A stretch of DNA of 64,000 bases from a virus. Each line of letters starts with the position of its first letter. The stretch's first letter is position 1. The position numbers and the translations under genes are program-made. The notes below the pieces were generated by a model that saw only the letters and a program-made list of their open reading frames with translations, did no database searches and was not told where the DNA came from. Shown here one piece after another: positions 1 to 24,447 of this stretch. The stretch covers positions 1-64,000 of the IMG/VR virus record IMGVR_UViG_3300050138_000621; one strand, written 5' to 3'.

Positions 1-394
1 CCTCGGCCTTGGTGCCATCGAAGGTCGCGACGATGTTCGCGACCAGCGTGGTGCGGCGAAGCTCCGAGTAGTACGACATCGGAACGGTTGCTCGGATGTA
101 GTCCGAGACCTCTTCCTGGCCGACCTGACCCTCCGTGCGCGCCGAACCACCGAGGATGCCGTGGCTGAGCACGCGGTTGAACTGCACGAGGTTGCTCTTG
201 TACGGCTTGCAGTCCATCTCCTTCTGCAAGGAGATCTGCTCGTTGCCGACGGTCACGCTGTGCATGATGTCGTCCAGCTCTTCACGCTGCAGGGCGCCGC
301 CCTGGGTGAGAGTGCTGGGGGCCGTGTCGTAGTTGCCGGCTTCCAGTTGAAGCGCCTTCTTGAGCTGCGCGATGATGTCCATGTTCGTTCCCAT
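1..394 (-). CDS. major capsid protein (HK97-fold type), N-terminal ~131 codons; CDS continues past window start
   Basis: Not in the ORF track because no stop lies in-window. Manual translation from ATG 394 gives MGTNMDIIAQLKKALQLEAGNYDTAPSTLTQGGALQREELDDIMHSV... GGAG lies 6 nt upstream. The GGaLxxEEL-type segment is typical of the start of the capsid domain. Sits directly downstream of the scaffold-like gene. Confidence 0.55.
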   Translation of the reverse strand, partial: MGTNMDIIAQLKKALQLEAGNYDTAPSTLTQGGALQREELDDIMHSVTVGNEQISLQKEMDCKPYKSNLVQFNRVLSHGILGGSARTEGQVGQEEVSDYIRATVPMSYYSELRRTTLVANIVATFDGTKAE

Positions 395-445
395 TTTTGT
401 CTCCGATGTGTCCTGTAAGAGTTTGCGAAATCTGAAACCTGTGAA

Positions 446-1393
446 TTAGGCGACGAGAAGGTCCTTCACCGACTCGACGTCCTCGTACTTCCCGCTGATG
501 AAGTCGTGCATCCGAGCCCGATCGTTGGCCGAGAGGGGTTTCTCGACCGTCTTTCGAACAAGAACCTTCATCTCGCTCTTGCTCAACGAAGCGAAGTCGA
601 CCGTGGCAGCGCCGAGGGCGGCGCCAGTGGCACGACGAACTTCGGAGAGCGAAGCTGCCGACTTGCGGATTGGCCGCTCGGCGTGCTTTTTGAGCGCCGC
701 AGAGATGTCGATCAGCTCGGCGATGACCGCAGTCTGATCGGTGACCTGTTTCTTCAGGTCCTCGATCAGCTTCTCGGATTTCTTGATCTCCGAGACCGAT
801 CCGTTGGGATCCGCCGGCATTTCCGCCTTGAGGGTCGGGTCCGCCATCGGAGGAACCGCCGGAGGAGCTGCAGAAGGGGCCATCGGAGGCGCCGCGGGAG
901 GAGCTACCGCTGCGGGGGGCGCCGCGATCGGAGCCTCCGGAGCAGGAGCCGCCGCCGGCATCGCCGCCATCATCGCGGCCCTGATCGCCAGGTAATGCAC
1001 CTGCAGCTCTTCGAGCGGCAGAGTGCTGTACGCGGCTTGCAGAGCCTCCGGGCTGTCGATGTCGCCATCGGCGGCCGGATCGATGAGGCCATCGTCCACC
1101 GGAGGACCGTCCACCGGGGCTTCCGGAGCGGGCGGTTCGTCGGTGGGCGCGTCCGCCGGCTTGTCGTCGGCGGGCGGAGCGTCGTCCTTGGGGGGCGGCG
1201 CAGTGGCCTTGTCGTCGGAGGCTTCCTTGGTGGCCGAGTCGTCCTTGGGGACTTCGTCCGTCGTCGACTCTCCGGGGATCGCCTTCGACAGCTTCTCGGC
1301 GGCCCTCAGGACCTCCGCTTTCACAACGGGTTCGAGCTGGGTGCTGACCTCTCGGAGGATCGCGTCAAGCTCTTTGAGTGGGATCTTTTTCAT
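446..1393 (-). CDS. putative scaffolding protein (helical ends, long Pro/Ala/Asp-rich centre)
   Basis: 315-aa ORF immediately upstream of the capsid gene. Low-complexity acidic Pro/Ala core flanked by helical segments. GGAG-type RBS (caggagaccagccaATG). Confidence 0.45.
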   Translation of the reverse strand: MKKIPLKELDAILREVSTQLEPVVKAEVLRAAEKLSKAIPGESTTDEVPKDDSATKEASDDKATAPPPKDDAPPADDKPADAPTDEPPAPEAPVDGPPVDDGLIDPAADGDIDSPEALQAAYSTLPLEELQVHYLAIRAAMMAAMPAAAPAPEAPIAAPPAAVAPPAAPPMAPSAAPPAVPPMADPTLKAEMPADPNGSVSEIKKSEKLIEDLKKQVTDQTAVIAELIDISAALKKHAERPIRKSAASLSEVRRATGAALGAATVDFASLSKSEMKVLVRKTVEKPLSANDRARMHDFISGKYEDVESVKDLLVA

Positions 1394-1435
1394 TGGCTGG
1401 TCTCCTGTGTGCGGCCTTTGGGTTTCGGGGCCGAC

Positions 1436-1891
1436 TTATTGCGAGGAGCGGGCGCCGTTGTAGAGGTTCGGGTAGACGGAGGCGACCGGGTTGCCGGTGA
1501 TGCCGGCGACGGCGGGGGCGCTGCCGTTGGCGACCTGGTACCAGTCCAGGCGAGTCCCGAAGGTGTTCAGAACCATCAGGAGCGACGCCAGCTCGACGGG
1601 GGTGAGGTACCCGACCGTGTGGGCCAGGGTCGAGTCGACCGACTCGGTCACCAGTTGGCAGACCGTCGGGGTGGGCACGTCGGCCGCCTGGCCGATCGCA
1701 TTCAGGGCCGGACCGGCGCTGGCTGCGATGAAGCGGATGAACGCGCTCTTGCTGCCCGCGGTGCCGGCGCCACAGGAGATCGTGGTGTTGCCGTTGGCGT
1801 CGTTGCCGACGGTGACGGGAGTCATGGTCGCGAGGCGCTTCGCCAGCTCGTCGCCGACCCGCTGCCCGACTGCATATGCTTTGTAGCTCAT
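1436..1891 (-). CDS. hypothetical head-module protein (possible decoration or minor capsid protein)
   Basis: ORF 1436..1924. The internal ATG at 1891 (MSYKAYAVGQRV...) is preferred, but 1924 is possible. Position between the protease fusion and scaffold genes. Confidence 0.55.
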   Translation of the reverse strand: MSYKAYAVGQRVGDELAKRLATMTPVTVGNDANGNTTISCGAGTAGSKSAFIRFIAASAGPALNAIGQAADVPTPTVCQLVTESVDSTLAHTVGYLTPVELASLLMVLNTFGTRLDWYQVANGSAPAVAGITGNPVASVYPNLYNGARSSQ

Positions 1892-2031
1892 TTGAAATTC
1901 TTTCTCGCCCCTTGCCGGGGACATTCAGAGTTGTGGGCCTCTTGCCCGTTGGGGCGTTGAGGCCAATTCGCTTGTACATAGATGGTTGACGTTCTTGCGC
2001 GGCAAAAAAACCGGTGACAATCATCCTTTGC

Positions 2032-2391
2032 ATGAAAGAGACCTATCGCTGTTCGCAATGCAGGTTCCCCAAGGACCGATCCGAGTTCCACGAGGAGTTG
2101 CGGCCCGACCGGAAGCGGCCCGTTTCTTCCAAATGCAGCGATTGCCGCTCGGACAACTATCACGCGACCAAATACGACCAGAAGTGCATGGCCTGCCTGA
2201 AACCTCGTGCCCTGGACTCAAACGGGATCTGCAATCGCTGCAACGATGCCGCCGGCAAGCGCCAATGCAGGCTTTGCAATGAAATGCGGCTTCGTTACTT
2301 CGACTTCTACGAGCGGCGGCGCGTCTGCCGCCACTGCATGGCCGCGAGGCGGACGAAAATTACGCCGCCTTCGGCTGCTTTGGCGTCGTAG
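2032..2391 (+). CDS. Cys-rich multi-CxxC zinc-ribbon protein (opposite-strand insert in head module)
   Basis: ORF 2014..2391. ATG 2032 gives MKETYRCSQCRF...CSDCRS...CMAC...CNRC...CRLC...CRHC. CAATCAT lies 7 nt upstream of the ATG. Confidence 0.55.
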   Translation: MKETYRCSQCRFPKDRSEFHEELRPDRKRPVSSKCSDCRSDNYHATKYDQKCMACLKPRALDSNGICNRCNDAAGKRQCRLCNEMRLRYFDFYERRRVCRHCMAARRTKITPPSAALAS

Positions 2392-4783
2392 GCGGCTTTG
2401 GGGCCCCCGAGGCCGCCGTACTGGGCATCTTCGGCGGCGCCGGACTTGGGGACGCTTCCGGCTTCGGCATCTTCGGCTCGGGAGGAGCCGCGGCGGGGTT
2501 CGACGGAGGCTTGGGAGGCTCGGCGTTCGCTGCAAGCGCGTTCGTCTGGGCGCTGCGGAGGGGGATGGCGCCTTCGGAGCCCGGGACCAAGGAGTGGGCC
2601 ATGTTTGGTGTGGAGCCCACTGGAAAGACGCGGCGCCGATCGCGTTCAGAAATTGCCTCTTGGCCGGGGTGGTACTTCTGAGTCTTGGCCTGAAGAAGCG
2701 CTTGGTCGGCCTGCTGCGGGTTGACCCCAAATCCCATCCCCGTCGAGATCTTGTGGATCCCACCCATCGGCGGCAGCGCCTCCAGCTTCTCGTGGAGCTT
2801 GCGCGTGAACGCCATCGCGTGCTCGTTCGACGGAAAGTGGGCCGTCATCTCGTCGCCACCTACCCGGAACAACTTCCCAGTACCCGGCGCGGCTTCATCG
2901 GCCGCTTCTCGCAGCGTTCTGCCGTAGGTGCGGATCGCGTCGTCGCCCATGTCGTGGCTGTGATCGTTCAGGGACTTGAGGTCGTTCAAGTCCATGCCCA
3001 CGTACACGCCCGGCTTGTTCTTGGAGCGAAACTCCTCCCACGCCTTCCTGTTGCCCAGGCCGGGGACCATCGGATCACCGTAAACGTGCTGGGTCATTCC
3101 CTCGGAGGTTCCGGCGGGGATGTGGCCGGCCGCCTCGGCGGCGCGTATGTGGGCGAGGAGGTCCTGGGCGTGGGGGGTGGACGCGGGATTGAGAGGGGTT
3201 GTGCCGGCGTCCGGGGAGGCCGTCTTGAGGCCAGGCGGTTGCCGCATTCCCTTCATGAGATCGCCGAACTGCTCCTCCATCTTGGCGATGGTCCCGGCCA
3301 GGTCCGGCGCCTTGTAGCGCAAGGTCGCGGCGCCGCTGCTGACGTTGGCCAGGATGGCCGCGGCCTCCTCGGGCGTGATGAGCTTGGCGTCCAGCAAGAC
3401 GTTGCCGTCGTGGAATTCGACGGTATGGGGCTCGTCGAAGCCAACGCGGTGGTAGTCGAACACCGGCGCGCGCACGGGGGCCGGCGGCGGGGGCGGCGCA
3501 TCGGGCTGCGGCTGCACTTCGTTGCCCTGGGGCTCGGGCGGCACGTACGGAGTCTCTTTGACGTCCAGCTCCGGGCTCTGCTGCATCGCCTGGATCATGT
3601 TGATCGTCGAGCTGGTCAGCGGGCCCTCGGGGATCGCCTTGGCGATCAGGCCGAAGTAGTCCTCCAAAATATGAACTGTATCGCCGATCAGCATGAACCG
3701 GCCGGCGAGGCGCGGTTCTCCGTTGATCTTCATGCTGACCGAATAAATGGTCGGCTTCCGAGGGTCGCCAAAGAGGATGGACGACCGCAAGTCGGTGAGG
3801 CTCTTGCGGAGCTGGATGCCCCACGAGTCCAGCAGGACCATCGGGTCGGTCTTCTTCACCTGCGAGCGGCCGACGCGGACGTCGTCGACGATCTTCTCGA
3901 AGTGGGCCAGGTACTCGTCGCTGGCCTCGGGCATCTCGGAGCGCATGAAATCCCGCAGCTCGCCCTTGTCGAAGGTCACGGCCTTCTCCAGGTACCGGCG
4001 GAGGGCGTCGACCGTCGTCGATACCATCTTTTTCTTCTTGGAGCCGTCGAGCGACTCCCGCTGCAGGGCCGCGCCGCCGGTCAGGGTGCTCGGCGCCGCG
4101 TCGTAGCTGCCGGCGGTGAGGGTTTTGGCGATCGGGTCCTCGACGATCGGGTTGTACACCCAGCCCAGCGCGCCACCGAGCTTTCGGGCGCGGGCCTCTT
4201 CCGGCAGCTCGCTCTTGAAGGCGGCTTCGAGGAGGCTGGACGTCTTCTTTTCGTTCGGGGTCTTGTCGAAACCGGCCGGGGCCTGCGGGTCCTCCAGCAG
4301 AATCGTGTCGCAGACCTTGTTGCAAGGGGTCCAAGTGGCCGCCAGCGCGATGGCCATGCTCTCTTTGAGGATGTTGCCTTCCCGGGACAGTGTGCTGCCC
4401 TCGATCGACCAGCGGACCAGCACCTTTTCGTCGTTCGCGACCTGATCACGGATGGAAGCCGCCAGGGCCATGGCCCCCGAGTGGCCGGCGCCGTCGAAAA
4501 GGCGGACGTGGCCAAAAACCAGGGGCTGGCGGACGCTCAACCAAGCCCGATGCTCCATGTCTGAGGTGCAATCCTTGGCCGAGAAGATCTTTTTTGCGTC
4601 CAGAACGACGCCGACCTTCTCCTCCCCGTTTGAGTCCTTAGCGTCCTTGTGCTCGTAATTCACGCTGGCAGTCCCGTCCTGAAAGGACGAGATGTCCAAG
4701 CCGTCGATCATCAGGCGCTCGCCGCTGCTGTCGATCGTCTCCGCGGCGAAGATGCCCGCCAAGATCATTCCAGTAGACGCCAT
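2360..4783 (-). CDS. prohead-protease-like N-terminal domain fused to a long linker and a GGDEF (diguanylate-cyclase-type) domain, with a Pro-rich tail
   Basis: 807-aa ORF. The N-terminus (AETIDSSGERL...VNYEHKD...WSIEGS) resembles the caudoviral prohead serine protease. Residues ~570-705 carry ordered GGDEF landmarks (PGLGNRKAW, MDLNDLKSLNDHSHDMGDD, RVGGDEM, STGMGFG, ADQALLQAK). Confidence 0.75.
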   Translation of the reverse strand: MASTGMILAGIFAAETIDSSGERLMIDGLDISSFQDGTASVNYEHKDAKDSNGEEKVGVVLDAKKIFSAKDCTSDMEHRAWLSVRQPLVFGHVRLFDGAGHSGAMALAASIRDQVANDEKVLVRWSIEGSTLSREGNILKESMAIALAATWTPCNKVCDTILLEDPQAPAGFDKTPNEKKTSSLLEAAFKSELPEEARARKLGGALGWVYNPIVEDPIAKTLTAGSYDAAPSTLTGGAALQRESLDGSKKKKMVSTTVDALRRYLEKAVTFDKGELRDFMRSEMPEASDEYLAHFEKIVDDVRVGRSQVKKTDPMVLLDSWGIQLRKSLTDLRSSILFGDPRKPTIYSVSMKINGEPRLAGRFMLIGDTVHILEDYFGLIAKAIPEGPLTSSTINMIQAMQQSPELDVKETPYVPPEPQGNEVQPQPDAPPPPPAPVRAPVFDYHRVGFDEPHTVEFHDGNVLLDAKLITPEEAAAILANVSSGAATLRYKAPDLAGTIAKMEEQFGDLMKGMRQPPGLKTASPDAGTTPLNPASTPHAQDLLAHIRAAEAAGHIPAGTSEGMTQHVYGDPMVPGLGNRKAWEEFRSKNKPGVYVGMDLNDLKSLNDHSHDMGDDAIRTYGRTLREAADEAAPGTGKLFRVGGDEMTAHFPSNEHAMAFTRKLHEKLEALPPMGGIHKISTGMGFGVNPQQADQALLQAKTQKYHPGQEAISERDRRRVFPVGSTPNMAHSLVPGSEGAIPLRSAQTNALAANAEPPKPPSNPAAAPPEPKMPKPEASPSPAPPKMPSTAASGAPKPPTTPKQPKAA

Positions 4784-4804
4784 GAGTCAATGATTGCCGT
4801 CGCA

Positions 4805-4824
4805 TTTTGGTGTTGACACCAAAA
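4805..4824. promoter_or_regulatory. perfect 8-bp inverted repeat TTTTGGTG-TTGA-CACCAAAA overlapping the -35 box (operator candidate)
   Basis: Read directly from the sequence. Lies in the 65-nt divergent region between starts 4783(-) and 4849(+). Confidence 0.45.
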
Positions 4825-4841
4825 CCGGGGTTCGCTATAAA
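4813..4841 (+). promoter_or_regulatory. sigma-70-type promoter TTGACA-17 nt-TATAAA driving the 4849..6250 insert
   Basis: TTGACA at 4813-4818 and TATAAA at 4836-4841. ATG 4849 lies 7 nt after the -10 box. The -10 region is a variant (GGTTCGCTATAA, 4829-4840) of the 12-mer. Confidence 0.5.
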
Positions 4842-4848
4842 AGAGGAC

Positions 4849-5550
4849 ATGGACAAGGACGTCAAAGTCGACACCCACCCCTCGTACGGCCAGGCGGTGT
4901 TCCACCGGGTGACCGGGAGCGTCGGGAAGCTCTACGGGAGCCCCCTCGCCGACCACCACTCGGTCATCCGGCTGACGATCAGCCGGTCGGAGATGAACCA
5001 CGATCTCGGCCGCGACTGGCGGTTCGGGCGCGACCAGCTCATCGAGGTCACGTTCTCCGCGGCACAATTCGCGGACCTCCTCACGAACATGAACGTGTCG
5101 GAGGGCGCCCCCTGCACCATCGACTTCATCCAGGGTGAGGGGAACATCGAGCCGCCGCCCGCAGACCAGGAGGTCGAGCACGAGAAGGTGACCAAGGCCT
5201 TCGAGGGTCAGGTCGCGGGGACGGCCAACCGGCTCCGGGAGAACCTGATCCAGCTCGGCGCCCTGCTGGAGAAGAAGGCCCTCAACAAAGAGGACAAGGG
5301 CAAGATCTACTGGATGGTCGAGAAGGCCCTCCAGGACGTCGAGTCGAACGCCCCCTTCATGGTGGAGCAGTTCGGCGAGGCCACCGAGAAGCTCGTGACC
5401 GCGGCGCGCGCCGAAGTGGCGGCCTCCACCGTCGCCATCGTCCAGAAGCTCGGGTTCGAGAAGCTGGAGGACATGCGCCAGGTGGCCGCGGCGCCCGAGC
5501 GGCGGTCCCACTTCGAGTACCTCGACGCGCCGAAGGGGGCGGGCAAGTGA
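4849..5550 (+). CDS. hypothetical protein (first gene of opposite-strand three-gene insert)
   Basis: ORF 4807..5550. ATG 4849 (MDKDVKVDTHPSYG...) lies 7 nt after a TATAAA -10 box. Confidence 0.65.
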   Translation: MDKDVKVDTHPSYGQAVFHRVTGSVGKLYGSPLADHHSVIRLTISRSEMNHDLGRDWRFGRDQLIEVTFSAAQFADLLTNMNVSEGAPCTIDFIQGEGNIEPPPADQEVEHEKVTKAFEGQVAGTANRLRENLIQLGALLEKKALNKEDKGKIYWMVEKALQDVESNAPFMVEQFGEATEKLVTAARAEVAASTVAIVQKLGFEKLEDMRQVAAAPERRSHFEYLDAPKGAGK

Positions 5551-5900
5551 AGCCGATCTTCCTCACCCTTGCGCTCCTGGCTGCAGTATCAGGCTGCCAC
5601 TCGAACAAGCTCCGCCCGGAGTGCTGGAAGAGCAAGAATGAGCGTCCGGCGAACTGCGAACCAAGCTGGTGCGGAGAGGGTGGAGAGTGCCCGGACGAAT
5701 GGGCGTTCCAGTGGATCGGTGGCTACGACAAGTGTCTGGAGCAATGGACCGACGAAGAGGTTCTTCACAACGAACTTCTCAAAGGCGAAACCACGGCCAA
5801 ACAGCACTGCTACAACTGGTACCTCAGGGCCCATCAAGGGGTCACCAAGGATCAGATGGAGCGGTATCGCCTGCTGAACCCAGCCAGGAGCGCACGCTGA
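5547..5900 (+). CDS. lipoprotein (signal peptide plus lipobox LAAVSGC)
   Basis: MKPIFLTLALLAAVSGCHSNK... is a classical lipoprotein signal. Start overlaps the upstream stop. Confidence 0.7.
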   Translation: MKPIFLTLALLAAVSGCHSNKLRPECWKSKNERPANCEPSWCGEGGECPDEWAFQWIGGYDKCLEQWTDEEVLHNELLKGETTAKQHCYNWYLRAHQGVTKDQMERYRLLNPARSAR

Positions 5901-6250
5901 TGGCCCGGCGTCAGTTTTGCGACGGACCCCACGCCTGGAGGGAGCACCAGCACCGCGGCAAAGTCGAGCTGCAGTGCTTAAAGTGTCCGGCCACCTTTCC
6001 TTGCCGAGATTCCTGCGCACACACCGACTGCGAGGACTACACCGGCCGCACCGCCGTCTGCCCGGTCTGCAAGAAGGAGGTCCCCTTCGCCGACGGGTTC
6101 CACTTCACCCGCTACGGGAAGCTGATCCGGACGTGCGCGGAGACCTGCCGGGAGGCTTTCGAGGGCCAACAGCACGACGAGACCTCGGAAGAGGCGCCCG
6201 AGCCCGAAACACGAGAGGAAGCTGCGGCACCTTCGGGCAGTTCAGCGTAG
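5900..6250 (+). CDS. Cys/His-rich zinc-binding protein
   Basis: In-frame ATG 5900 within ORF 5669..6250, overlapping the upstream TGA (ATGA). MARRQFCDGPHAWREHQHRGKVELQCLKCP...CPVCKK... Confidence 0.55.
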   Translation: MARRQFCDGPHAWREHQHRGKVELQCLKCPATFPCRDSCAHTDCEDYTGRTAVCPVCKKEVPFADGFHFTRYGKLIRTCAETCREAFEGQQHDETSEEAPEPETREEAAAPSGSSA

Positions 6251-6277
6251 AGGCGGTCGAAGAGCATCCAAGGCCGA

Positions 6278-6679: not shown

Positions 6680-6719
6680 GTCCCCAAAATGCTCATCGCT
6701 GGGGGTCTTGTCAAGGCCG

Positions 6720-7493: not shown

Positions 7494-7496
7494 CGT

Positions 7497-9512
7497 TTAG
7501 TTCCTCGGCGCTTGCTTCTTGGCCGCCTCAACGATGTCTTTCGTGGCCTCTTTCAGGTCGGCTTCGAGCCCCTGAGTGAATCGCTCCATGATCTTCCGGT
7601 GCTGAGACAGGAGCCGGCGCTGCGACTTGGGGAGCTGCTCCTCTTTCTTGGTCAGCAGCCCGATGGCCTGATCGATCGACCTGGTCAGATCTTCGCCGCC
7701 GTCGCCGGCGGGCTGATCTGTGGGCGCGTCACCTTTTCCGCCTTCGGCCGGTGGGGCTCCGCCGGGCGGCACAGCTGCCGCGGCCTGTTGCGCGGCAGCG
7801 TCCGCCTGGACCTGCTGAAAATAGAAGGGATCGCGGAGGTACTGGAACTTCGGGTCCGCCGAGGCCCCGGGCACGTCGAAGAACGTCTCCATGATGACGC
7901 CGACGGGGACGTACTTGTCGAGGACGGCCTGCCACTGCGGGTTGAGGAGGAAGTCGCCGCCGAACTTCTTCGGGAGCGTCGGCTTCTCCACCTTCTGCAT
8001 GATCTGGTTGATCGTGAGGTGGAGAGCGGCGTCCTGCTGAAGACGGACCGATTCCTTTTCCTCGGTGTCCGCGTCCAGACCGGTGAGTTCCACTCGGCAC
8101 ATCTGCGCCAGCTCGGGATCGATCAGCGGGAAGAGGACGTTGTTGGTGAAGTCCTCGAACTTCGTGAGCAGGGGCCGAATCCCGACGTCCCGCGCGGCCG
8201 TCATCTGGAACTGGTTGTTCGACTCCGACAGCGCCTGGCTGTTCGGGCCCTTCGAAAGGTAGGCCCAGCCCGGCAGCTCGTCGGGGCTCATCATGAACGC
8301 GCTCAGGATCGAGCGGGCGTTCATGTCGGTGAGGTACGTGAACTCGGCGTCGCGTGAGGCGCCGTCCATCGTGATGAACTCGACCTCGTCGTTGGGCGAA
8401 ATCGAGAACGTCGGCAGGCGCCAGGAGTTGTTCACCCCGTTGATGGATGCCTGGAAGTTCTGCTGGATCGTCTTCAGCATGTTCTCATCGACGTCGTCCG
8501 ACTTGAACACCAGCATCCCGCGCGCGGCGCGGCCGGTCTGGAAGTAGAGCTGGTTGTGCTGGGTGATGTTCAGGTGCGTGAGCACCGCCTTGATGCAGGT
8601 GTCGAGCGGCGGGACCGGGTATCCGTCGTTCTCCCAGTCGTTGACCGGGTCGAAACTGAAGACTGCAAGCTCTTTGTCGGTGAAGACCTGCCAGGTGACG
8701 CCATCGATCACTTGCACCCAGTCGAAGTGCTCGGGGGCCCCGCCCTCGGTCACCAGCTTCAGATTCTTCAGTTTCTCCAGGGCGATCTTCGACCGCTCGC
8801 GGACGCCGTCTTGGCCAGCGTCTTGTGGGTTGGCAAAGAAGATCGTCGAGACGTCGACGGGCCGGAAGTGATGGAACTCGTCCTTCCCTCCAAACTTGGT
8901 CTTGGGGATGATTTCCGTGGCGATACGCCCCAGGACGACGGCGTTGCGCGCGATCATTTGGAGGTAGGTGGCGAAGGACATCTGATCCTTCTGGGCTACC
9001 TCGTCGGTGTCACCGCAGGTGCTCAGTCTCGCGACCGCTGAGTCGATCTTCTTCTGCAGTTCCGTCTTCTGGATGTCGCTGAGGTTGTCGAGGACGCCGG
9101 CCTTGGCGTTGATCTTGAACCCAGTCTTAAAACGGGTCGGGCGCGGGCGGCCGAAGGACCCGATCTGCATCTCGCGGGCGCGGACGATCGCGGCCACGAG
9201 GTCGTCCTGGATGGCGATCCGCTTCAGGAACGAGTCCGGGACGCCCCTGGTCTTGGGCTTGTAGATCGAAATGTACTTGCCCTGCGTGGGCGAGACCTCG
9301 AACGCGAGGCGCTCGATGGTCCGGCCGCCGCCGCTGAGCACGCCGACGAGGGCCTTTTCCAGGGTCTCGTTCTTGCCCAGCTCCGCGCTCTTGGAGTCGA
9401 TGCTGAACCGGACCGGCTTACCCTTCTTGGCCGGAGGCGGCGCCGTCGTCAGGAGCGGGAACCGCTTCGTAAGCGACGACTCGGACTTTTTGAATAGATC
9501 GGTGGCGCTCAT
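7497..9512 (-). CDS. portal protein
   Basis: 671-aa ORF between the terminase region and the head-morphogenesis gene. Size and position are typical of a portal. No motif-level proof. Confidence 0.55.
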   Translation of the reverse strand: MSATDLFKKSESSLTKRFPLLTTAPPPAKKGKPVRFSIDSKSAELGKNETLEKALVGVLSGGGRTIERLAFEVSPTQGKYISIYKPKTRGVPDSFLKRIAIQDDLVAAIVRAREMQIGSFGRPRPTRFKTGFKINAKAGVLDNLSDIQKTELQKKIDSAVARLSTCGDTDEVAQKDQMSFATYLQMIARNAVVLGRIATEIIPKTKFGGKDEFHHFRPVDVSTIFFANPQDAGQDGVRERSKIALEKLKNLKLVTEGGAPEHFDWVQVIDGVTWQVFTDKELAVFSFDPVNDWENDGYPVPPLDTCIKAVLTHLNITQHNQLYFQTGRAARGMLVFKSDDVDENMLKTIQQNFQASINGVNNSWRLPTFSISPNDEVEFITMDGASRDAEFTYLTDMNARSILSAFMMSPDELPGWAYLSKGPNSQALSESNNQFQMTAARDVGIRPLLTKFEDFTNNVLFPLIDPELAQMCRVELTGLDADTEEKESVRLQQDAALHLTINQIMQKVEKPTLPKKFGGDFLLNPQWQAVLDKYVPVGVIMETFFDVPGASADPKFQYLRDPFYFQQVQADAAAQQAAAAVPPGGAPPAEGGKGDAPTDQPAGDGGEDLTRSIDQAIGLLTKKEEQLPKSQRRLLSQHRKIMERFTQGLEADLKEATKDIVEAAKKQAPRN

Positions 9513-10502: not shown

Positions 10503-10526
10503 TCCATGATTGCGGGTCGGCTGAGA

Positions 10527-13500
10527 TCAGAGCGCATACTTGAAGCCACCCTTCTTGCCGGACTGACCGTCCGGGCCGCCCTCGATGATCCCGTTGTCCT
10601 CTTTCCACTTTTGGAACCAGTTGGCGGTGTGCTTCCGGAAGTTCTCCAATGGGGTCGGGGGCGCCTTCTTGGCGTCGTTGGCTGGGGCGGAAACGATGCG
10701 CTTGTTGGGCGGGAACTCGTTCATGACGAGATAGCGGAGGCCGTCACATTCGTCGTCGTCCTCCTCGTCCGGGACGTCGGTGGGGTCCCCTTGGGAGTCG
10801 ATCGTCCAGTGGTACTGGGACATGTTCTTGTAGAGCACCTCGACTCCGGGGTCGCCGGCCAGGAAGTAGAGCAGGGGCTCGCCGAGGGTCGGGCGGAGGC
10901 GCATGCAGACGATATCAATGCCATCGTTCACGGACCCCGAGCCCTTGTTCCATTCCCGCATCCGATACCCGGATTTCTTGAACATCGCGATCAACTGCGG
11001 GCTCGCGGTGTCGGGCCAGATCGACGGGTTGAACGATTTGATGTCCGCGTCACACTTGTGGATCATCGCGTCCGGCAGGAGTTCGGGAGCGCTGATGCAG
11101 GCGATGACGAAGGCGCGGGCGCCATCGATCGCCGCCAATGGCACGGCGAAATTGTGCTTGAAGCCGAAGTCCATGCCGGCGGCGAAGCGGACGCCGCGGA
11201 GTTTGAGGAAGACGATCAGCTCCGCTTTCGTCATATCCGGCCTGACCGTCTCGCCTGTGATTTTCTGGACGATTTGGGCCGGAGTGAGCATGTGGATGCT
11301 GCGCTCCAGGTGCGGGTAGATGAGACCCTCGGTTGAGGGCTTGCGGCAAAGGAGTTGGGCGTTGGCGGTCGGCACCGAAACCGTGCGGAACTGGGCCTGA
11401 GTGAAGGAAATGGACCGAAGCAGAGGAGAGGTCGACTTCTGCTCGGTGGCGAGGAAGCCGCGGCAATTGTGCACTGCAACGCCATCGGCGATATAGCTAT
11501 GATCCTCTTCTACCTCTAGGTTGAATACCTCGCCGGCATAGGCCGTCACGGAGCTGTCATCTAGGCGATATTGATTATATCCATTCTCGAATTTGTACAC
11601 GCTGGAGCGATGGCGCAGAACATGGCCTATGCGATTCCAGGACACCTGATAAGACTGTCTCTTGCCAGCGATCGGGGGGAGGGTCCTAAATCGCGGACAG
11701 AGCCCAAGCCTGGATGCAATAAGGAACAGTTGGGAGGCAAGGTCGCGGCCCGTGATGTCTATATCAGATCTGCTCTCCAAGCCCTTCTTCCCGTCCCCGT
11801 CAAAAACCCCATTGAGGATGGCCGCCTGGACCTTCAAATCCATGTCCAGCAATGAGGGATGGATCTTTTTCTCATCGCAATATTCGCCACATAAGGCAGA
11901 GAAAAGATCTGCCATCGTAGAGCCGTATATGTACGTGGCCGCTCCAAGCGATCGTGCGCTTTTGGGCGAAGTCTTATAGGGCAACCCGAAAGACTCCGCA
12001 AATGCATGGAGACGGGCGTGGAAGTCGACCTCCTTTACGTGGCTAGAAAAGCACAGTGAATTCTTCGCCCTCTTCCCCCCACGCGCATGTTTTCCAAAAC
12101 TCCCCTCCGCCAGAAAGAAACCAAGAGTCCACGCAAAGTCTTCGGTGATTTGGATATCTACGGGCAGCGCATATGCGCGCTCCGTCCTGGACCCAGTACG
12201 CGCACGGTGGTTGTGGACCAGCATCGGAGCGCGGATGAAATCGATCAACGATATCTGAGAGGCTCTGGTTGGAGAAAAGCCGGACGGAAGCGACAAAAAG
12301 TCATTTGGCGTACGTATCCCGTCAGGAACGTGACCCGTAAAAGAGAGATCCGAAGCCTGCATGCGAGAGGCCTCTACGAAATCGTTCCCGTTAATAAAAT
12401 ACGGATGCTCAGGAGTAACGATCGTGTCTATCGCCCAGGCCCCGTGACGAACGGAGAGGGCGGGGCCGCTATAAGGCCTGCTCATGACCTCAGTTACTCG
12501 GCGGCGTGCCCCAGTGTGTGAAATAATAACGTCCCCGATAGAGATCTGGCAAATACTTCGGAACGTACCGTCCCCCATCAGAATCTGAGTGTCAGGAGCA
12601 AAGCAGGAGGCGAAGAGCTTGCAGTTCGTCAGGCAGCCGGTGTAGCCCTCCTTCTCGACGAACTTCCTCCGAGCGTCGGGATCCAGCTTGTCGTACTTCT
12701 CCTGGGAGAGTGCGACAAGATTCGGCTCGTCCAGGTAGATCGGCAGCCGGGGGAGGTCGGGGCGGTGGCGCGAGGCCGGACAGGCCTCCGTAACGTCGAT
12801 GATGTTCCAGTGTCGGATGTGAAGGCGGCGGTCCCCGTCCTTGTCGAACTCGTTGTCGATTTCCTTCTGGACCAGACCGAACGAAAACTTCCGGCTGGAC
12901 GTGAGCATCGAGATCGGGTTGACGCCGGGCCTGTCGGCTGCCGGGATCATCAGCGATTCCTGGAACGCGGCGATGTCGTTGATGACGTCCAGCTCGTCGG
13001 TACAGAAATAGGAGGCGTGAAGCCCGTTCGCCCCCTTCATCGTGCAAACGACGACCTTGATGAAGTTGCGAACCTCCACGAACGGGAGCTTTTCGACCTC
13101 TGAAAGGAGTTCGTACTCGCCCTTCGAGAGGGTCAAGCCGTCGTTGCGGTTGATGTAACGGAGGATCACCGTCGCGCCCTTGGCGTCCCCTTCCACGAAG
13201 TCGCGGAACGGCAGCTTCGCAAAGAAGCCTCTGACGTAGCCGAGGCTGATGTGGCTCTGCACCTCCACCGCGGCCATGTGCGCGACGTTGCGATTGAGGT
13301 GGAACACCATCAACAGCTCGATGATGGCCGCCGAGAGCGTCTTGAAGCATCCGCGGGCCGCATAGAACAGGGCGCGGCTGTAGTCGGGGTCGTTTGCTCG
13401 CGCCTTGGAGTAGATCTCGTAGATCATGTCCATCGGCGAGCTGTTCGAGTCCGGGTCCACGATGCAGTCGGGGATGTCCAGTTCCAAAAATAGAAGGATC

Positions 13501-13601
13501 CAGCGATGAAGCGCCTCTTTGGAGTCGCACGGGATCGCGAAGATCTTCCGCTTGATCGCTTCCTTCTGTTCGTCAGTGGTCAGGGGCGTTGGGTCGCTCA
13601 T
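10527..13601 (-). CDS. terL: terminase large subunit interrupted by an intein
   Basis: 1024-aa ORF. The exteins resemble a terminase ATPase and nuclease. Residues 333-712 form the intein. Confidence 0.7.
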   Translation of the reverse strand: MSDPTPLTTDEQKEAIKRKIFAIPCDSKEALHRWILLFLELDIPDCIVDPDSNSSPMDMIYEIYSKARANDPDYSRALFYAARGCFKTLSAAIIELLMVFHLNRNVAHMAAVEVQSHISLGYVRGFFAKLPFRDFVEGDAKGATVILRYINRNDGLTLSKGEYELLSEVEKLPFVEVRNFIKVVVCTMKGANGLHASYFCTDELDVINDIAAFQESLMIPAADRPGVNPISMLTSSRKFSFGLVQKEIDNEFDKDGDRRLHIRHWNIIDVTEACPASRHRPDLPRLPIYLDEPNLVALSQEKYDKLDPDARRKFVEKEGYTGCLTNCKLFASCFAPDTQILMGDGTFRSICQISIGDVIISHTGARRRVTEVMSRPYSGPALSVRHGAWAIDTIVTPEHPYFINGNDFVEASRMQASDLSFTGHVPDGIRTPNDFLSLPSGFSPTRASQISLIDFIRAPMLVHNHRARTGSRTERAYALPVDIQITEDFAWTLGFFLAEGSFGKHARGGKRAKNSLCFSSHVKEVDFHARLHAFAESFGLPYKTSPKSARSLGAATYIYGSTMADLFSALCGEYCDEKKIHPSLLDMDLKVQAAILNGVFDGDGKKGLESRSDIDITGRDLASQLFLIASRLGLCPRFRTLPPIAGKRQSYQVSWNRIGHVLRHRSSVYKFENGYNQYRLDDSSVTAYAGEVFNLEVEEDHSYIADGVAVHNCRGFLATEQKSTSPLLRSISFTQAQFRTVSVPTANAQLLCRKPSTEGLIYPHLERSIHMLTPAQIVQKITGETVRPDMTKAELIVFLKLRGVRFAAGMDFGFKHNFAVPLAAIDGARAFVIACISAPELLPDAMIHKCDADIKSFNPSIWPDTASPQLIAMFKKSGYRMREWNKGSGSVNDGIDIVCMRLRPTLGEPLLYFLAGDPGVEVLYKNMSQYHWTIDSQGDPTDVPDEEDDDECDGLRYLVMNEFPPNKRIVSAPANDAKKAPPTPLENFRKHTANWFQKWKEDNGIIEGGPDGQSGKKGGFKYAL
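11466..12605 (-). mobile_element. intein with LAGLIDADG homing-endonuclease domain in terL (380 aa)
   Basis: Begins CFAPDTQILMGDG (block A) and ends ...HSYIADGVAVHN followed by +1 Cys. Two dodecapeptide motifs: LGFFLAEGSF and ILNGVFDGDGKKG. GC content is visibly lower than the flanks. Confidence 0.8.
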
Positions 13602-22674: not shown

Positions 22675-24447
22675 TTATTCGGAAAAGGTCTGTTGTTCGG
22701 GCTCGACCGTCTCGCGCATGAACGCCGCCGTCGACTTGGCCTCGGCTCGTTCCAGCTCGGAATCGCGCGGAATGACGACGAGTCCCCCCAATGTGCCGTG
22801 CTGCGAGGCGATGGAGATCGAGTTGCGGATGGCCTCCAGGACGGCCGGGGTGCTATCGAGGACGCCCGCCGTGTACGGGTCGACGTGCTTCCAGTTGAGG
22901 AAGTCGTAGACCACCGGCGGCTCGTCGGCGGCGATGGGGGCCATGATGCCGGCGAGGATGTCCTGGGCCTCCTTCACGTCGTAGATCCCGCAGTTCGACA
23001 CCAACCGCTTGAAGGGCTCGATCAGCGACTTGCGAAGGACCTCCGAATTGATGTCATTGTTCGGAAGCTCGTGAAGGACCTTCAAAAGCGTCCACGCGCC
23101 GCCGGGCAGGCAGCCCGACTTGATGGCCCCGCGGACGGCGCAGACCGCGTCGTCGGCCCTGTCGCGCTTTTCCTTCAGCTCACCGTTGGACACGCCGAAC
23201 ACCTTGAGGTTGGCGATCCCGTTGGCGAGATTGGCCTTCCGCTTCCGGATAGACATCGCGTCCAGTTCCGACTCCGGCGCCTTGAGCTGCTGCTCCAACT
23301 CCTCGACACGCATCCCGAGCAAGTCCGGGTCCGCGTGGCCGACGATCGTCGAACGGAATCGCGAGACCTCGAACCTGGCGACACCTGGCCCCAGGTCATC
23401 CAGCTCGGCCCGCTCCGGCGGATTGGAGATGGCGTCGAGGATTTTGGCTCCCGTGATCGCCTGCAGGTCCTTGAGAAAATCCGACTGCCCGTTCGAAAAC
23501 GGGTTCGGGGGGATCATGAGGGGGAAGACGTTGATGGTGCTCTGGACGGGGAAGTTCGTCGCAAGATCTGCCAGCACGGAGTCCGAGAAGCCGGTGGCGA
23601 CCAGCACCACGTTGCTGTGGGGGTAGTCCTTGGCGGTCCCCCAGTGGAACCCGATCTTCTCCAGGAGCATCTGGACAGTCTGGGTGTTGGAGAGGTGCCC
23701 ATTGAAGAGGACGAAGACTGGCCGATCGAGGACGCAGCGCTGGGTGCCGGCGTCGTTGATGAACACCGAGCTGTAGCGCATACAGCAGTCGTCGTAGCCG
23801 ATGTGGATCGGGAAGCCCTCCACTCGCTCGACCTCGTACCGGGACGGTCCGCTGTTCTCGGAGATGGTGACGTTGCCCTCGTCGCCGGTGATGCGGAAGC
23901 ATTCGAGGACCGCGTCGGCCAGGTCGGTGTCGCCGTTGGCCGAGATGGTGGCGACAGCCTTTAGGAGGGCTTGGCCTTCGGCCGTATCGGGATCCGCCTT
24001 GCGGGAGAGCTGGGTGATCAGAGGGGCGATGACATCCCGGAAGGTCTTCTCCAGGTGCCGCACGATCTTCTGGGGAGAGATCTGGCGGTTGGACTCGCAG
24101 TACGCGTAGAGGTGCCGCACGATCGACTCGGCCAGTATCGTTGCCGTGGTCGTTCCGTCTCCGGCCTCGGTGGCAGTGCGCTTGGCGGCGTCGCGGGCCG
24201 TCTCCATGATGACGTGCGCGGCGGCATCCTCGAAGCCGAGGGATTGGAACACGGTTACGCCGTCCTTGGTGATGATGGGCGGCACGCCGTTCTCGTAACG
24301 TTCGATGAGAACGACCTGACCTCCTGGGCCCAACGTTGACCCGACGATGTCGGAGATGGTCTTCATGGTCTCCAGGATCACCTTCTTGAGACGGGGACCT
24401 TTGACTTCGATACGTTTGCCGGTCGACTTGACTTTTTTGTAGTCCAT
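22675..24447 (-). CDS. groL: GroEL-like (Cpn60) chaperonin
   Basis: 590 aa. TEAGDGTTTATILAESIV matches the Cpn60 ATP-binding signature and the length fits. A 12-mer lies 11 nt upstream. Confidence 0.8.
   Translation of the reverse strand: MDYKKVKSTGKRIEVKGPRLKKVILETMKTISDIVGSTLGPGGQVVLIERYENGVPPIITKDGVTVFQSLGFEDAAAHVIMETARDAAKRTATEAGDGTTTATILAESIVRHLYAYCESNRQISPQKIVRHLEKTFRDVIAPLITQLSRKADPDTAEGQALLKAVATISANGDTDLADAVLECFRITGDEGNVTISENSGPSRYEVERVEGFPIHIGYDDCCMRYSSVFINDAGTQRCVLDRPVFVLFNGHLSNTQTVQMLLEKIGFHWGTAKDYPHSNVVLVATGFSDSVLADLATNFPVQSTINVFPLMIPPNPFSNGQSDFLKDLQAITGAKILDAISNPPERAELDDLGPGVARFEVSRFRSTIVGHADPDLLGMRVEELEQQLKAPESELDAMSIRKRKANLANGIANLKVFGVSNGELKEKRDRADDAVCAVRGAIKSGCLPGGAWTLLKVLHELPNNDINSEVLRKSLIEPFKRLVSNCGIYDVKEAQDILAGIMAPIAADEPPVVYDFLNWKHVDPYTAGVLDSTPAVLEAIRNSISIASQHGTLGGLVVIPRDSELERAEAKSTAAFMRETVEPEQQTFSE

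Follow-up and report, generated by a model that had tools for sequence, protein, structure and literature searches.

The gene at 2360..4783(-) of the window (the whole 64,000-nucleotide stretch of IMG/VR record IMGVR_UViG_3300050138_000621 analysed here) encodes an 807-aa protein in which a GGDEF domain of catalytically competent appearance is joined to a domain with the fold of a prohead protease, within a block of phage head genes. The reading we prefer, with a probability of roughly one half, is that this protein provides a c-di-GMP synthase without product inhibition, which is carried into the prohead with a protease-scaffold protein and possibly delivered to the host. Judged by its sequence, the window is part of a ~169-kb soil myophage related to Myxococcus phage Mx1, and a homologue identical to the 807-aa product (P0001) is encoded on a 168,646-bp JGI contig. 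A myxobacterial host is assumed only from Mx1 as the nearest isolate. The parts of the protein are as follows.

2360..4783 (-): gene of the 807-aa polyprotein, running protease, linker, helical region, beta domains, GGDEF domain and tail (translation)
4274..4783 (-), aa 1-170: predicted prohead (capsid-maturation) protease domain of the assemblin/T4 gp21 fold (AF2, Foldseek, BFVD)
4649..4651 (-): His45 codon, candidate catalytic histidine (invariant in 69 homologues and 28 N-domains)
4406..4408 (-): Ser126 codon (SIEGST), candidate catalytic serine (invariant in the same 69 homologues and 28 N-domains)
4043..4123 (-), aa 221-247: capsid-protein-like motif TLTAGSYDAAPSTLTGGAALQRESLDG in the linker (likeness to the capsid N-terminus)
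3770..4045 (-), aa 247-338: scaffold-like stretch of four long helices, at the end of the module common to all relatives (AF2 secondary structure)
3551..3751 (-), aa 345-411: small beta-rich domain that always accompanies GGDEF (AF2 pLDDT >90)
3257..3463 (-), aa 441-509: second small alpha/beta domain (AF2 model; R489 and Y490 conserved)
2561..3169 (-), aa 539-741: GGDEF diguanylate-cyclase module with two N-terminal helices and a conserved C-terminal strand PNMAHSLVPGSEGAIP (Pfam, Foldseek, residue conservation)
2846..2860 (-), aa 642-646: GGDEM active-site loop (translation; GGDE kept in ~57-62 of 67 modules)
2363..2560 (-), aa 742-807: variable Pro/Lys-rich low-complexity tail (not conserved between relatives)

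The 807-aa translation is free of stops, and the GC fractions at codon positions 1, 2 and 3 (0.63, 0.47 and 0.86) mark 2360..4783(-) as the coding frame; the third-position value is even along the whole gene. The overlapping 785-aa ORF 2207..4564(+), with a GC3 of 0.64, is a shadow ORF. The window derives from a metagenome contig, so a frameshift, misassembly or chimeric contig might have created the fusion, or the likeness to GGDEF might be due to chance, an explanation to which we give practically no weight. The fused architecture is found in 64 of 207 homologues, at 35-83% identity and in many independent metagenomes (JGI, Logan, ENA and NCBI assemblies), and is therefore not an assembly artefact; it recurs at 17 loci, GC3 is uniform through the coding frame, and Pfam, structure prediction and fold search agree on GGDEF. 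The artefact reading is refuted.

The original prediction had recognised a GGDEF domain by its landmarks, and all of them (DPMVPGLGNRKAW, VYVGMDLNDLKSLNDHSHDMGDD, KLFRVGGDEMTAHF, ISTGMGFG and ADQALLQAK, in that order) are found in the translation, with the GGDEM loop at the place claimed. The profile and structure checks proposed for the domain came out in its favour. Pfam PF00990 matches aa 580-702 with E 2.9e-8 and 34.1 bits, above the curated cut-off of 23.8 bits, and homologues reach matches as good as E 2.8e-14; a sequence search of the PDB at E < 0.1 returned diguanylate cyclases alone. The AF2 model of the domain has a pLDDT >90, and the best 50 Foldseek matches listed against the PDB are all GGDEF diguanylate cyclases or GGDEF domains, including WspR, PleD, SadC and DgcB (E 1e-7 to 1e-4, probability 1.0, TM up to 0.68). 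NCBIfam gave six matches, all diguanylate cyclases and each under its own cut-off; TIGR00254 scored 24.0 bits, below its cut-off of 37.4 bits, which points to a divergent member of the family. A tblastn search with the domain against 50,697 phage records found no close relative except Mx1. Residues 580-702 look like a genuine GGDEF domain, competent for catalysis.

PleD, WspR, SadC and DgcB are like this domain in fold and in the GG(D/E)EF loop, and they have in common with it the Mg ligands, the Asn/Asp that bind guanine and the Lys that binds phosphate. When aligned to PleD, with numbering verified against PDB chains, D598 corresponds to D327, N606 to N335, D614 to D344, R640 to R366, GGDE to G368-E371 and K700 to the phosphate-binding K442; the roles of the metal, guanine and phosphate residues are described in PMC7288161. 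The Mg2+ ligands D598 and D644 align to PleD D327 and E370, D598 being kept in 58 of 61 modules, and the guanine-binding residues are kept in 58 of 62 (N606) and 53 of 62 (D614). With its preceding conserved Arg, the loop reads R640-V-G642-G-D-E-M646. Its fifth residue is Met here; across the family the counts are 41 modules for F, 5 for M, 4 for Y and 3 each for A and T. The position of the phosphate-binding Arg of PleD, R446, is occupied by Y704, beside a K703 that is invariant in 17 close homologues and kept in 55 of the 60 modules with a residue there. As far as the alignment goes, every catalytic and guanine-binding residue checked is present save at this R446 position. Of 67 modules, 53-62 retain the PleD-aligned residues for catalysis and guanine binding, which speaks for selection for catalysis. 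Sensor-type GGDEF domains typically lose these catalytic residues.

Compared with the bacterial cyclases, the window protein lacks both the RxxD I-site and any input domain of the receiver, PAS, GAF or coiled-coil type; it also carries an extra conserved C-terminal strand (consensus PNxAHSLVPGxEG), has a non-conserved R446 position and is encoded in a virus head operon. The lack of an RxxD inhibitory site upstream of GGDEM had been noted beforehand and was borne out: none lies 6-9 residues before the GG of the 807-aa protein, where PGTG stands, and just 2 of 55 modules have one in the 12 residues before the motif, leaving 53 without the I-site. The enzyme is for this reason predicted to be free of product inhibition, with family membership unaffected; the near-complete active site and the missing RxxD together lead to the prediction of feedback-free c-di-GMP synthesis.

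It is improbable that the module makes another product, such as cGAMP, c-di-AMP, linear pppGpG or an oligonucleotide acting against CBASS or type III CRISPR. Hypr-type GGDEF enzymes do yield cGAMP (PMC7288161); Mx1 resists an M. xanthus CBASS/type III-B island that stops Mx4, and the authors of that work suspected unknown countermeasures in its large genome (PMC11506125); and Iyer et al. 2017 proposed interference with host nucleotide responses for the GGDEF domains of polyvalent proteins. However, the D614 position is Asp in 53 of 62 modules and never Ser in those tabulated, which argues for GTP and c-di-GMP over Hypr-type cGAMP; N606 is also kept, both residues pointing to guanine. The best 50 fold matches listed are, as above, GGDEF proteins, and nothing ties the cyclase gene to the resistance of Mx1.

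The N-terminal domain had been proposed to be a prohead serine protease, and this stands by fold but not by sequence. The AF2 model of aa 1-170 has a pLDDT >90, and its top eight Foldseek matches in the PDB are herpesvirus proteases (assemblins) and T4 gp21 (5jbl; probability 0.96, TM 0.52), at E values of only 0.008-0.1. Among the predicted viral structures of BFVD, 133 matches reach E <= 1e-3, many labelled prohead protease, and those so named have E 1e-10 to 1e-6. Besides the invariant His45 and Ser126, H101 is almost invariant among the homologues (69 sequences; 28 N-domains). The Pfam check for a prohead protease was negative, with no match at E <= 10 apart from GGDEF; a profile of the 28 N-domains matched nothing among PDB sequences; and the weak match to phrog_1028, 'head maturation protease' (E 0.057), is confined to the linker motif. 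The probable assignment as a protease draws on fold and two invariant residues, with no sequence family. The N-terminal module alone accounts for 782 representative clusters, whose products range from 270 to about 1950 aa.

The gene had also been placed between the portal and capsid genes, and the annotation agrees, with the portal gene at 7497..9512(-) and the capsid gene starting at nt 394(-). The neighbourhood comprises the following genes.

1..394 (-): major capsid protein, first 131 codons, cut by the window edge (tblastn with the Mx1 capsid protein, 49% identity, E 9e-33)
446..1393 (-): putative scaffolding protein, 315 aa, directly upstream of the capsid gene (matches the 313-aa counterpart gene of relative L005)
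1436..1924 (-): conserved head-block gene, 162 aa (48% identity to a 151-aa L005 gene; GC3 0.88)
7497..9512 (-): portal protein (phrog_12, E 7e-21)
10527..13601 (-): large terminase subunit, interrupted by an intein (PHROG terminase matches on the C-terminal part)

The putative scaffolding role of 446..1393(-) is suggested by its position, a weak coiled-coil-type Pfam match being all that its product returned. The Pfam Phage_portal match of the portal gene is weak (E 2e-8, 34.2 bits, under the 39.1-bit cut-off), and the intein in the terminase is recognised by Hint and LAGLIDADG matches within aa ~332-718. The ORFs 4765..5511(-) and 1365..2033(-) are spurious, the real neighbours being 4807..5550(+) and 1436..1924(-).

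The nearest isolated relative is Mx1 (OR576727), whose protease (WNM70322, 1239 aa) and 'nucleotide cyclase' (WNM70324, 243 aa) are known from annotation only. Its genome announcement gives neither functions nor virion data for them, and the literature yielded no virion proteomics for the clade. Residues 3-307 of the 807-aa protein show 38% identity to the N-terminus of the Mx1 protease, and 38% is likewise reached between residues 567-733 and the Mx1 cyclase (Pfam GGDEF, E 1.3e-9). Both phages share the gene order terminase, portal, protease, cyclase and capsid; the protease lies between portal and capsid genes in Mx1 and in five metagenomic relatives. Mx1, however, encodes the cyclase on its own, two ORFs downstream of the protease, and its protease bears an added stretch of ~900 aa, weakly matching PI3K/PI4K-type kinases, that is absent from the window protein. 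Among 37 informative loci, defined as related loci with sufficient DNA downstream of the protease, the GGDEF module is fused to the protease ORF at 17, encoded as a separate downstream gene on the same strand at 16, including Mx1, and missing at 4. At every locus with a detected capsid gene, the separate gene sits upstream of it, so that the module lies in the protease-to-capsid block, fused or adjacent, at 33 of 37 loci. Long relatives join the protease, a ~600-aa kinase-like module and GGDEF in one polypeptide. Alternation of fusion with adjacency is a classic sign of interacting partners, and this conserved linkage suggests incorporation of the enzyme in the phage head and perhaps its entry into the host.

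The same distribution bears on the possibility that the cyclase, expressed together with the head genes, works in the infected cell's cytoplasm late in infection, with packaging absent or incidental. Raised c-di-GMP might then stop motility or pili, block superinfection or alter the envelope before lysis, the protease fusion serving only co-regulation and release by self-cleavage. We consider this rather unlikely. The module is a separate gene at 16 of the 33 loci that bear it; the separate versions have no recognisable targeting propeptide; the annotated GGDEF genes of other phages are regarded as genes for interaction with the host and are not reported among virion components; and an intact active site suits any catalytic role. 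On the other hand, at 33 of 37 loci the module stays within the block from protease to capsid, on the same strand, and at 17 it is fused; there is no obvious reason to tie a cytoplasmic enzyme to the one protein obliged to enter the prohead. In the long forms, GGDEF follows the kinase-like module, an arrangement resembling the multi-effector 'polyvalent' proteins that are predicted to be delivered. If the enzyme did act late in the cytoplasm, this would still be a clade-wide, conserved phage manipulation of c-di-GMP.

The linker adds a second tie to the head. It is mostly unstructured around aa 221-247 (mean AF2 pLDDT about 50-60), and its motif is 76% identical over 25 aa to aa 17-41 of the capsid protein (E 1e-11), where the copy lies at nt 272..346. 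In all 7 genomes compared, a protease-linker motif is paired with the capsid N-terminus (E 1e-11 to 2e-5), and the Mx1 protease linker has the motif too. The 25 residues end in a conserved Glu, E243 being at least 90% conserved, and aa 221-247 are a candidate Glu-specific cleavage site or mimic of the capsid N-arm. A physical link of the GGDEF module to the prohead is favoured because of this copy of the capsid N-terminal motif and because the module lies in the protease-to-capsid block at 33 of 37 loci. The homology of the 807-aa protein to Mx1 and all other relatives stops at about aa 307-313, in the helical region. The beta-rich domain at aa 345-411, without any Pfam or PDB sequence match, is also found in the stand-alone GGDEF proteins of L003 and L004.

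This layout resembles that of protease-scaffold polyproteins, namely herpesvirus pUL26 (assemblin-linker-scaffold), P2 gpO and lambda C/Nu3: an assemblin-fold protease at the N-terminus leads into a flexible linker and then a scaffold-like helical part, with conserved candidate self-cleavage sites after the protease and near the C-terminus. Those polyproteins are not known to carry an unrelated enzyme domain, unlike the 807-aa protein, and are cut at Ala/Ser, whereas cleavage here is predicted after Glu, as in T4 and giant phages. The prohead protease of SPN3US cuts after Glu, and propeptides direct proteins to the prohead (PMC10052503). Such a setting would suit a structural part of the prohead core, in which GGDEF merely binds nucleotides or dimerises, for example as a GTP-dependent switch that keeps the protease inactive until assembly, with no role in host signalling. 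Degenerate GGDEF domains that only bind GTP exist (PMC7288161), and the module always travels with two extra small domains. This role is nevertheless hard to credit, given that conservation extends to the whole catalytic set, with both metal ligands and the GGDE loop, and that four related loci have no module; the domain is therefore not essential for head assembly in this lineage.

A packaged cyclase could work in four steps. The assemblin-fold protease, the capsid-like linker motif and the helical region would recruit the protein to the assembling prohead. The protease would then cut after conserved Glu residues (candidates KSE192, LQRE243 and PGSE737). This would mature the capsid protein, in which the LQxE motif recurs ~40 residues past the N-terminus, and would release a folded fragment of ~55 kDa, aa 244-737, with the two small domains and GGDEF. 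Too large to leak, this fragment might be kept in the head and enter the cell with the DNA, on the model of T4 Alt and the T4 internal proteins; this is the least certain step. Once dimerised in the GTP-containing cytoplasm, the module would make c-di-GMP from GTP with no feedback.

T4 Alt and IPI-III are the working model: enzymes are loaded in the prohead core, trimmed by a Glu-specific protease, kept in the head and injected with the DNA, so that the host is reprogrammed (PMC5512222, which also gives MuF fusions and the N4 virion RNA polymerase as precedents for head-packaged, injected enzymes). The T4 gp21 protease shares its fold with aa 1-170. T4 cargo proteins, in contrast, are polypeptides in their own right, with a short capsid-targeting propeptide at the N-terminus. 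In the present case the cargo would be covalently attached to the protease, with GGDEF C-terminal to it and no targeting propeptide of the T4 type, and relatives encode adjacent cargo without a propeptide. The chemistry also differs, ADP-ribosylation in T4 Alt as against predicted second-messenger synthesis. Of the claim that a packaged signalling enzyme is fused to head assembly, the genuine GGDEF domain, its fusion to a prohead-protease fold and the head-assembly block have held up, while packaging, cleavage, ejection, c-di-GMP synthesis and any effect on host signalling are what we infer.

Several observations count against the reading as a packaged cyclase. The stand-alone GGDEF proteins (Mx1, L003 and L004) begin at the module, with neither a propeptide nor a capsid-like motif, which leaves capsid entry of those versions unexplained. 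The T4 prohead protease does not itself stay in the head, being degraded and lost; fusion to a protease is thus no guarantee of retention. Diguanylate cyclase activity needs a dimer, and no dimerising coiled coil is obvious before the GGDEF domain in the AF2 model. The score below the TIGR00254 cut-off, the Tyr at the PleD R446 position, the Met as fifth motif residue and a protease identity drawn from fold and two residues weigh in the same direction.

The original prediction knew of no characterised example of a nucleotide cyclase tied to capsid assembly, and none was found in the searchable literature. The idea is not wholly new, being preceded by the Mx1 annotation, a mention of GGDEF by Iyer et al. 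and the GGDEF genes of other phages. The Mx1 GenBank record places the 'nucleotide cyclase' two genes past a 'putative prohead protease'. GGDEF genes are also annotated in Yuavirus and Vojvodinavirus LK3 and in phage G ('DgcQ'); they are thought to alter host behaviour and are described as host-interaction genes, not as parts of a protease or head protein. The polyvalent proteins of Iyer, Burroughs, Anand, de Souza and Aravind (2017), from phages and conjugative elements, combine enzymatic domains of unrelated kinds in a polypeptide whose gene lies with the virion genes, and their delivery during invasion is predicted. The 807-aa protein likewise has two unrelated enzymatic domains in a head block, protease and GGDEF, and the long relatives with protease, kinase-like module and GGDEF fit the pattern. 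The paper lists GGDEF among the rarer polyvalent domains and suggests that invaders use cyclic-nucleotide signals; its phage fusions involve MuF or portal domains, its one named GGDEF example is a giant Acetonema prophage protein, and neither a prohead protease as carrier nor a clade-wide head-block GGDEF is described in the accessible text. In contrast, Pfam and PHROG found no MuF or portal domain in the 807-aa protein, whose carrier is the prohead protease.

Capsid-carried effector enzymes are a known kind, to which a protease-tethered GGDEF would add a variant. Phages degrade or sequester host cyclic nucleotides, and they inject ADP-ribosyltransferases and RNA polymerases. A c-di-GMP synthase inside the capsid, if confirmed, would be a new takeover of host signalling at the start of infection, and the prohead protease a previously unrecognised carrier of effector cargo, which bears on many uncharacterised long 'prohead protease' genes in metagenomes. 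The hypothesis is readily testable with the cultivable Mx1 and its host M. xanthus, which is genetically tractable and has a well-studied c-di-GMP biology. More tentatively, and with the odds against it, this could be the first virion-delivered second-messenger synthase, with tens of feedback-insensitive cyclase copies, tethered to the protease and in many relatives to the kinase-like module as well, injected with the DNA to flood the cell with c-di-GMP before phage gene expression. In a myxobacterial host, such a flood could stop type IV pili and motility, and could underlie the rounding of cells reported right after Mx1 adsorption (PMC6070905).

The fusion of a prohead-protease fold to a GGDEF module within a single product is real, conserved and unexplained by current annotation. 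Its gene, 2360..4783(-), is open throughout its 807 codons, and its GC content by codon position (0.63/0.47/0.86, within 62% GC sequence) identifies it as a real gene. The same statistic marks the opposite-strand 785-aa ORF 2207..4564(+) as a shadow ORF; together with 4765..5511(-), 1365..2033(-) and 506..1960(+), it has a GC3 of 0.52-0.67, in a GC-rich genome. GC3 and homology to the related locus L005 indicate that the real genes are 2360..4783(-), 4807..5550(+), 1436..1924(-) and 446..1393(-). An artefactual origin of the fusion is excluded. Scanning window positions 1-7600 for promoters and terminators returned background-level signals. The parts of the encoded protein (the window protein) are the following:

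aa 1-170: protease domain
aa 170-246: linker, mostly unstructured and modelled with low confidence (mean pLDDT about 50-60)
aa 247-338: four long helices in the AF2 model
aa 345-411: small domain of no assigned function, confidently modelled
aa 441-509: small domain of no assigned function, confidently modelled
aa 539-741: GGDEF module, with the additional conserved strand PNMAHSLVPGSEGAIP
C-terminal tail: variable, Pro/Lys-rich

Pro-rich linkers separate the two small domains. Judged from sequence profiles, the GGDEF domain is genuine, yet divergent. GGDEF (PF00990) is the single Pfam family matched by the window protein (aa 580-702, E 2.9e-8; 34.1 bits, where the gathering threshold is 23.8), and diguanylate cyclases are the only matches with E < 0.1 in a PDB sequence search. 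Every NCBIfam match is likewise a diguanylate cyclase, each falling under its own cut-off (for TIGR00254, 24 vs 37.4 bits). The AlphaFold2 model of aa 340-745 (33 homologues) has a pLDDT above 90 over the domain, and the best 50 PDB matches listed by Foldseek are all GGDEF cyclases or GGDEF domains, including WspR, PleD, SadC, DgcB and DgcR (E 1e-7 to 1e-4, probability 1.0, TM up to 0.68). Thus, the Pfam score above the gathering threshold and the structural matches to cyclases uphold the GGDEF assignment of the original prediction, whose sequence landmarks were all found in the order claimed, with GGDEM at nt 2846..2860.

The GGDEF family was aligned to the reference diguanylate cyclase PleD, whose sequence and numbering were checked against PDB chains 2wb4 and 9g85. 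The residue correspondences are listed below, the roles of D327, E370, N335, D344 and K442 being those given in PMC7288161:

D598: PleD D327, Mg ligand
D644: PleD E370, Mg ligand
N606: PleD N335, guanine binding
D614: PleD D344, guanine binding
R640: PleD R366, conserved Arg preceding GG
K700: PleD K442, phosphate binding

The position of PleD R446 is occupied by Tyr, adjoining Lys703, which does not vary among 17 close homologues and is retained in 55 of the 60 modules with a residue there. Since the PleD-aligned catalytic residues are kept in 53-62 of 67 family modules, the pattern is that of an enzyme rather than of a degenerate sensor. According to PMC7288161, Hypr enzymes, the GGDEF type making cGAMP, have Ser at the D344 position; the Asp found here favours GTP and c-di-GMP, and Hypr-type specificity was rejected. 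These residues argue for a module predicted to convert GTP into c-di-GMP. That the enzyme makes some other nucleotide directed against host immunity is improbable given the Asp/Asn guanine signature. The lack of an RxxD product-inhibition site near GGDEM, noted originally, was borne out in the window protein and extends to 53 of 55 relatives. Among 20 other large proteins of the window, Pfam searches detected neither PilZ, EAL or HD-GYP domains nor a second cyclase.

At the N-terminus, neither Pfam nor PHROG returned a protease family, and a profile of 28 N-domains searched against PDB sequences gave chance bromodomain matches only; the protease call therefore rests on the fold. An AF2 model of aa 1-340 (69 homologues) has a pLDDT above 90 at aa 1-170, and the top eight matches of a PDB fold search consist of assemblins from herpesviruses and gp21, the prohead protease of T4 (probability 0.96, TM 0.52, with E values of only 0.008-0.1). 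Predicted viral structures gave 133 matches at E <= 1e-3, many of them named prohead protease, COG3740, Peptidase U9 or XkdF. His45 and Ser126 are invariant across the 69 homologues. We accept from these models that the N-terminus adopts the fold of prohead proteases and has a conserved pair of His and Ser; the predicted protease stands on its fold and paired residues, with no match to a curated protease family in Pfam or PHROG.

The window derives from the large genome of a lytic phage; P0001, a protein identical to the window protein, is encoded on a 168,646-bp contig. As originally described, the fusion gene sits in a head-gene block, with the portal gene upstream and the putative scaffold and capsid genes downstream:

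10527..13601(-): large terminase, 1024 aa, upstream of the protease gene, with an intein within aa ~332-718 (Hint and LAGLIDADG homing-endonuclease parts)
upstream, same strand: portal gene
1436..1924(-): 162-aa gene, downstream
446..1393(-): 315-aa putative scaffold gene, downstream
downstream, to the window edge: major capsid gene, first 131 codons only

Megablast of window positions 1-14000 against 50,697 phage records found no match. The sole isolated relative is the 169.6-kb Myxococcus myovirus Mx1 (OR576727), and the similarity is at the protein level only. The N-terminal 307 aa are 38% identical to its 1239-aa 'putative prohead protease' (WNM70322), and the GGDEF part is 38% identical to a separate 243-aa 'nucleotide cyclase' (WNM70324), encoded two genes downstream of the protease and ahead of the capsid gene. 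The announcement of the Mx1 genome gives data on neither function nor virions. When the GGDEF domain alone served as query, tblastn recovered Mx1 and eight weak matches in human-faecal 'Bacteriophage sp.' records. The one large record inspected, MT835474, was dropped as a phage-head parallel because it looks like a conjugative element (T4SS coupling protein, topoisomerase). Its locus L007 (MT835474.1, 39031-57360) encodes a 946-aa protein whose C-terminus weakly resembles GGDEF, and directly after it a HipA_C-like protein, a gene pair that echoes the GGDEF and kinase-like pairing of the Mx1-like clade. Scanning GTDB representative genomes returned one relative, L008 (CALMSM010000181.1). Its 45-kb contig was assigned to a Candidatus Saccharibacteria MAG, probably through mis-binning of phage DNA, and gives no dependable pointer to the host.

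A word-indexed search yielded 76 homologues, about 34 with a fused GGDEF domain, whose products come in two size classes, one of 700-800 aa, comparable with the window protein, and one of 1130-1400 aa. They are built from three modules:

module A: protease, linker and helices, aa 1-310, in all members
module B: some 600 aa, weakly similar to PI3K/PI4K/HipA-type kinases, carried by the long forms and missing from the window protein
module C: the two small domains and GGDEF

Module A alone matched 782 representative clusters at E <= 1e-3, and in all but one of the best 150 of these it starts no more than about 35 residues from the N-terminus. In many relatives, module B lies between the protease and GGDEF parts or at the protease C-terminus, as in P0039, P0051, Mx1 WNM70322 (L001 11965-15684) and the loci L003 and L004, which have stand-alone GGDEF proteins. 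Its match to PF00454 (E 1.6e-5) is below the cut-off; from this resemblance, it may be a second effector cargo. No kinase-like module of the Mx1 type occurs elsewhere in the window. Module C was scored with family HMMs at 48 loci:

17 loci: within the protease ORF
16 loci: separate same-strand ORF downstream of the protease, and upstream of the capsid gene where that gene was detected
4 loci: absent in more distant relatives (L038, L046, L047 and L049), with the protease N-module present and 9-11 kb of downstream sequence
11 loci: too short to be judged

The repeated alternation of fusion and adjacency gives good grounds for a physical partnership between the protease protein and the cyclase module. 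The GGDEF module might instead have a structural or regulatory part in assembly, but this is very unlikely, as the catalytic set is intact and four loci dispense with module C. The stand-alone versions lack a propeptide, which would suit a cyclase acting late in the cytoplasm, a reading that we consider rather unlikely. In some loci of both the fused and separate types, homing-endonuclease or HTH-type genes adjoin or follow module C, so insertion of mobile genes may explain the two states, which may be tied to a hot spot for insertions in the gap behind the protease-GGDEF gene. In the window, this gap holds a Cys-rich 125-aa ORF on the opposite strand (2014..2391(+), GC3 0.76); relatives have Endonuclease_7, HTH-type or uncharacterised opposite-strand genes at the same spot.

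The protease also has a motif in common with the capsid protein. Linker residues aa 221-247, TLTAGSYDAAPSTLTGGAALQRESLDG, are 76% identical over 25 residues to capsid protein aa 17-41, with the consensus K-A-L-x-A-G-x-Y-D-A-A-P-S-x-L-x-x-G-x-A-L-Q-x-E:

4043..4123(-): motif in the protease linker
272..346(-): motif in the capsid gene

The pairing occurs in 7/7 genomes (the window and L001-L006; pairwise E 1e-11 to 2e-5), and the Glu at the motif end is at least 90% conserved. T4 gp21 cuts after Glu. In the giant phage SPN3US, the prohead protease, gp245, likewise cleaves after this residue, and in such phages propeptides target proteins to the prohead (PMC10052503). By analogy, the linker motif is a candidate maturation site; alternatively, it may mimic the capsid N-arm and recruit the protease. 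Under both readings, the window protein would therefore be inside the prohead. Flexible regions contain two further conserved Glu, E192 and E737. PNxAHSLVPG was rejected as a cleavage site only, as AHSL is modelled as a strand packed on the GGDEF domain; only the GxE that follows is kept as a candidate cleavage site. A degenerate version of the motif pattern matched 71 stretches in GTDB genomes, only one of them in a relative of the query, so head proteins of other phages may commonly carry the motif.

The best-supported explanation, at a probability of about one half, is a capsid-associated diguanylate cyclase free of feedback inhibition. It would enter the prohead attached to the maturation protease or alongside it, be released by Glu-specific cleavage and possibly be injected along with the DNA in the manner of T4 Alt. 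The original prediction of a packaged, possibly ejected signalling enzyme is partly supported: the analysis establishes what the domains are, that the active site is conserved, that the genes are linked and that the motif is common to both proteins, whereas packaging, cleavage, ejection, catalytic activity and the target in the host are steps that we infer. The closest working likenesses are T4 Alt with the T4 internal proteins, although the T4-type propeptide is missing in the window protein, and the 'polyvalent proteins' of Iyer et al., among which that work notes rare GGDEF domains. The carrier domain, a prohead protease, is new. The front half of the window protein resembles protease-scaffold polyproteins, for example herpesvirus pUL26 and P2 gpO. 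GGDEF genes are annotated in Yuavirus, Vojvodinavirus and phage G, though not within a head protein. The searchable literature yielded no characterised capsid-borne cyclase, in agreement with the earlier statement that no such example was known. If the host is a myxobacterium, c-di-GMP targets, including type IV pilus motility, are plausible leads. Rounding of the cells is reported to follow Mx1 adsorption (PMC6070905), which is a further lead.

Elsewhere in the window, 35491..39588(+) encodes a 1365-aa DNA polymerase III alpha-type replicase that also contains an intein (Intein_splicing match, aa 557-947), and 22675..24447(-) encodes a phage-borne Cpn60/GroEL-like chaperonin of 590 aa (Pfam Cpn60_TCP1, E 2e-35). 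Two products that are unusual for phage genomes are an RtcB RNA ligase of full length (50704..52020(+), E 8e-123) and a Kelch-repeat beta-propeller protein of 925 aa (61208..63985(-)).
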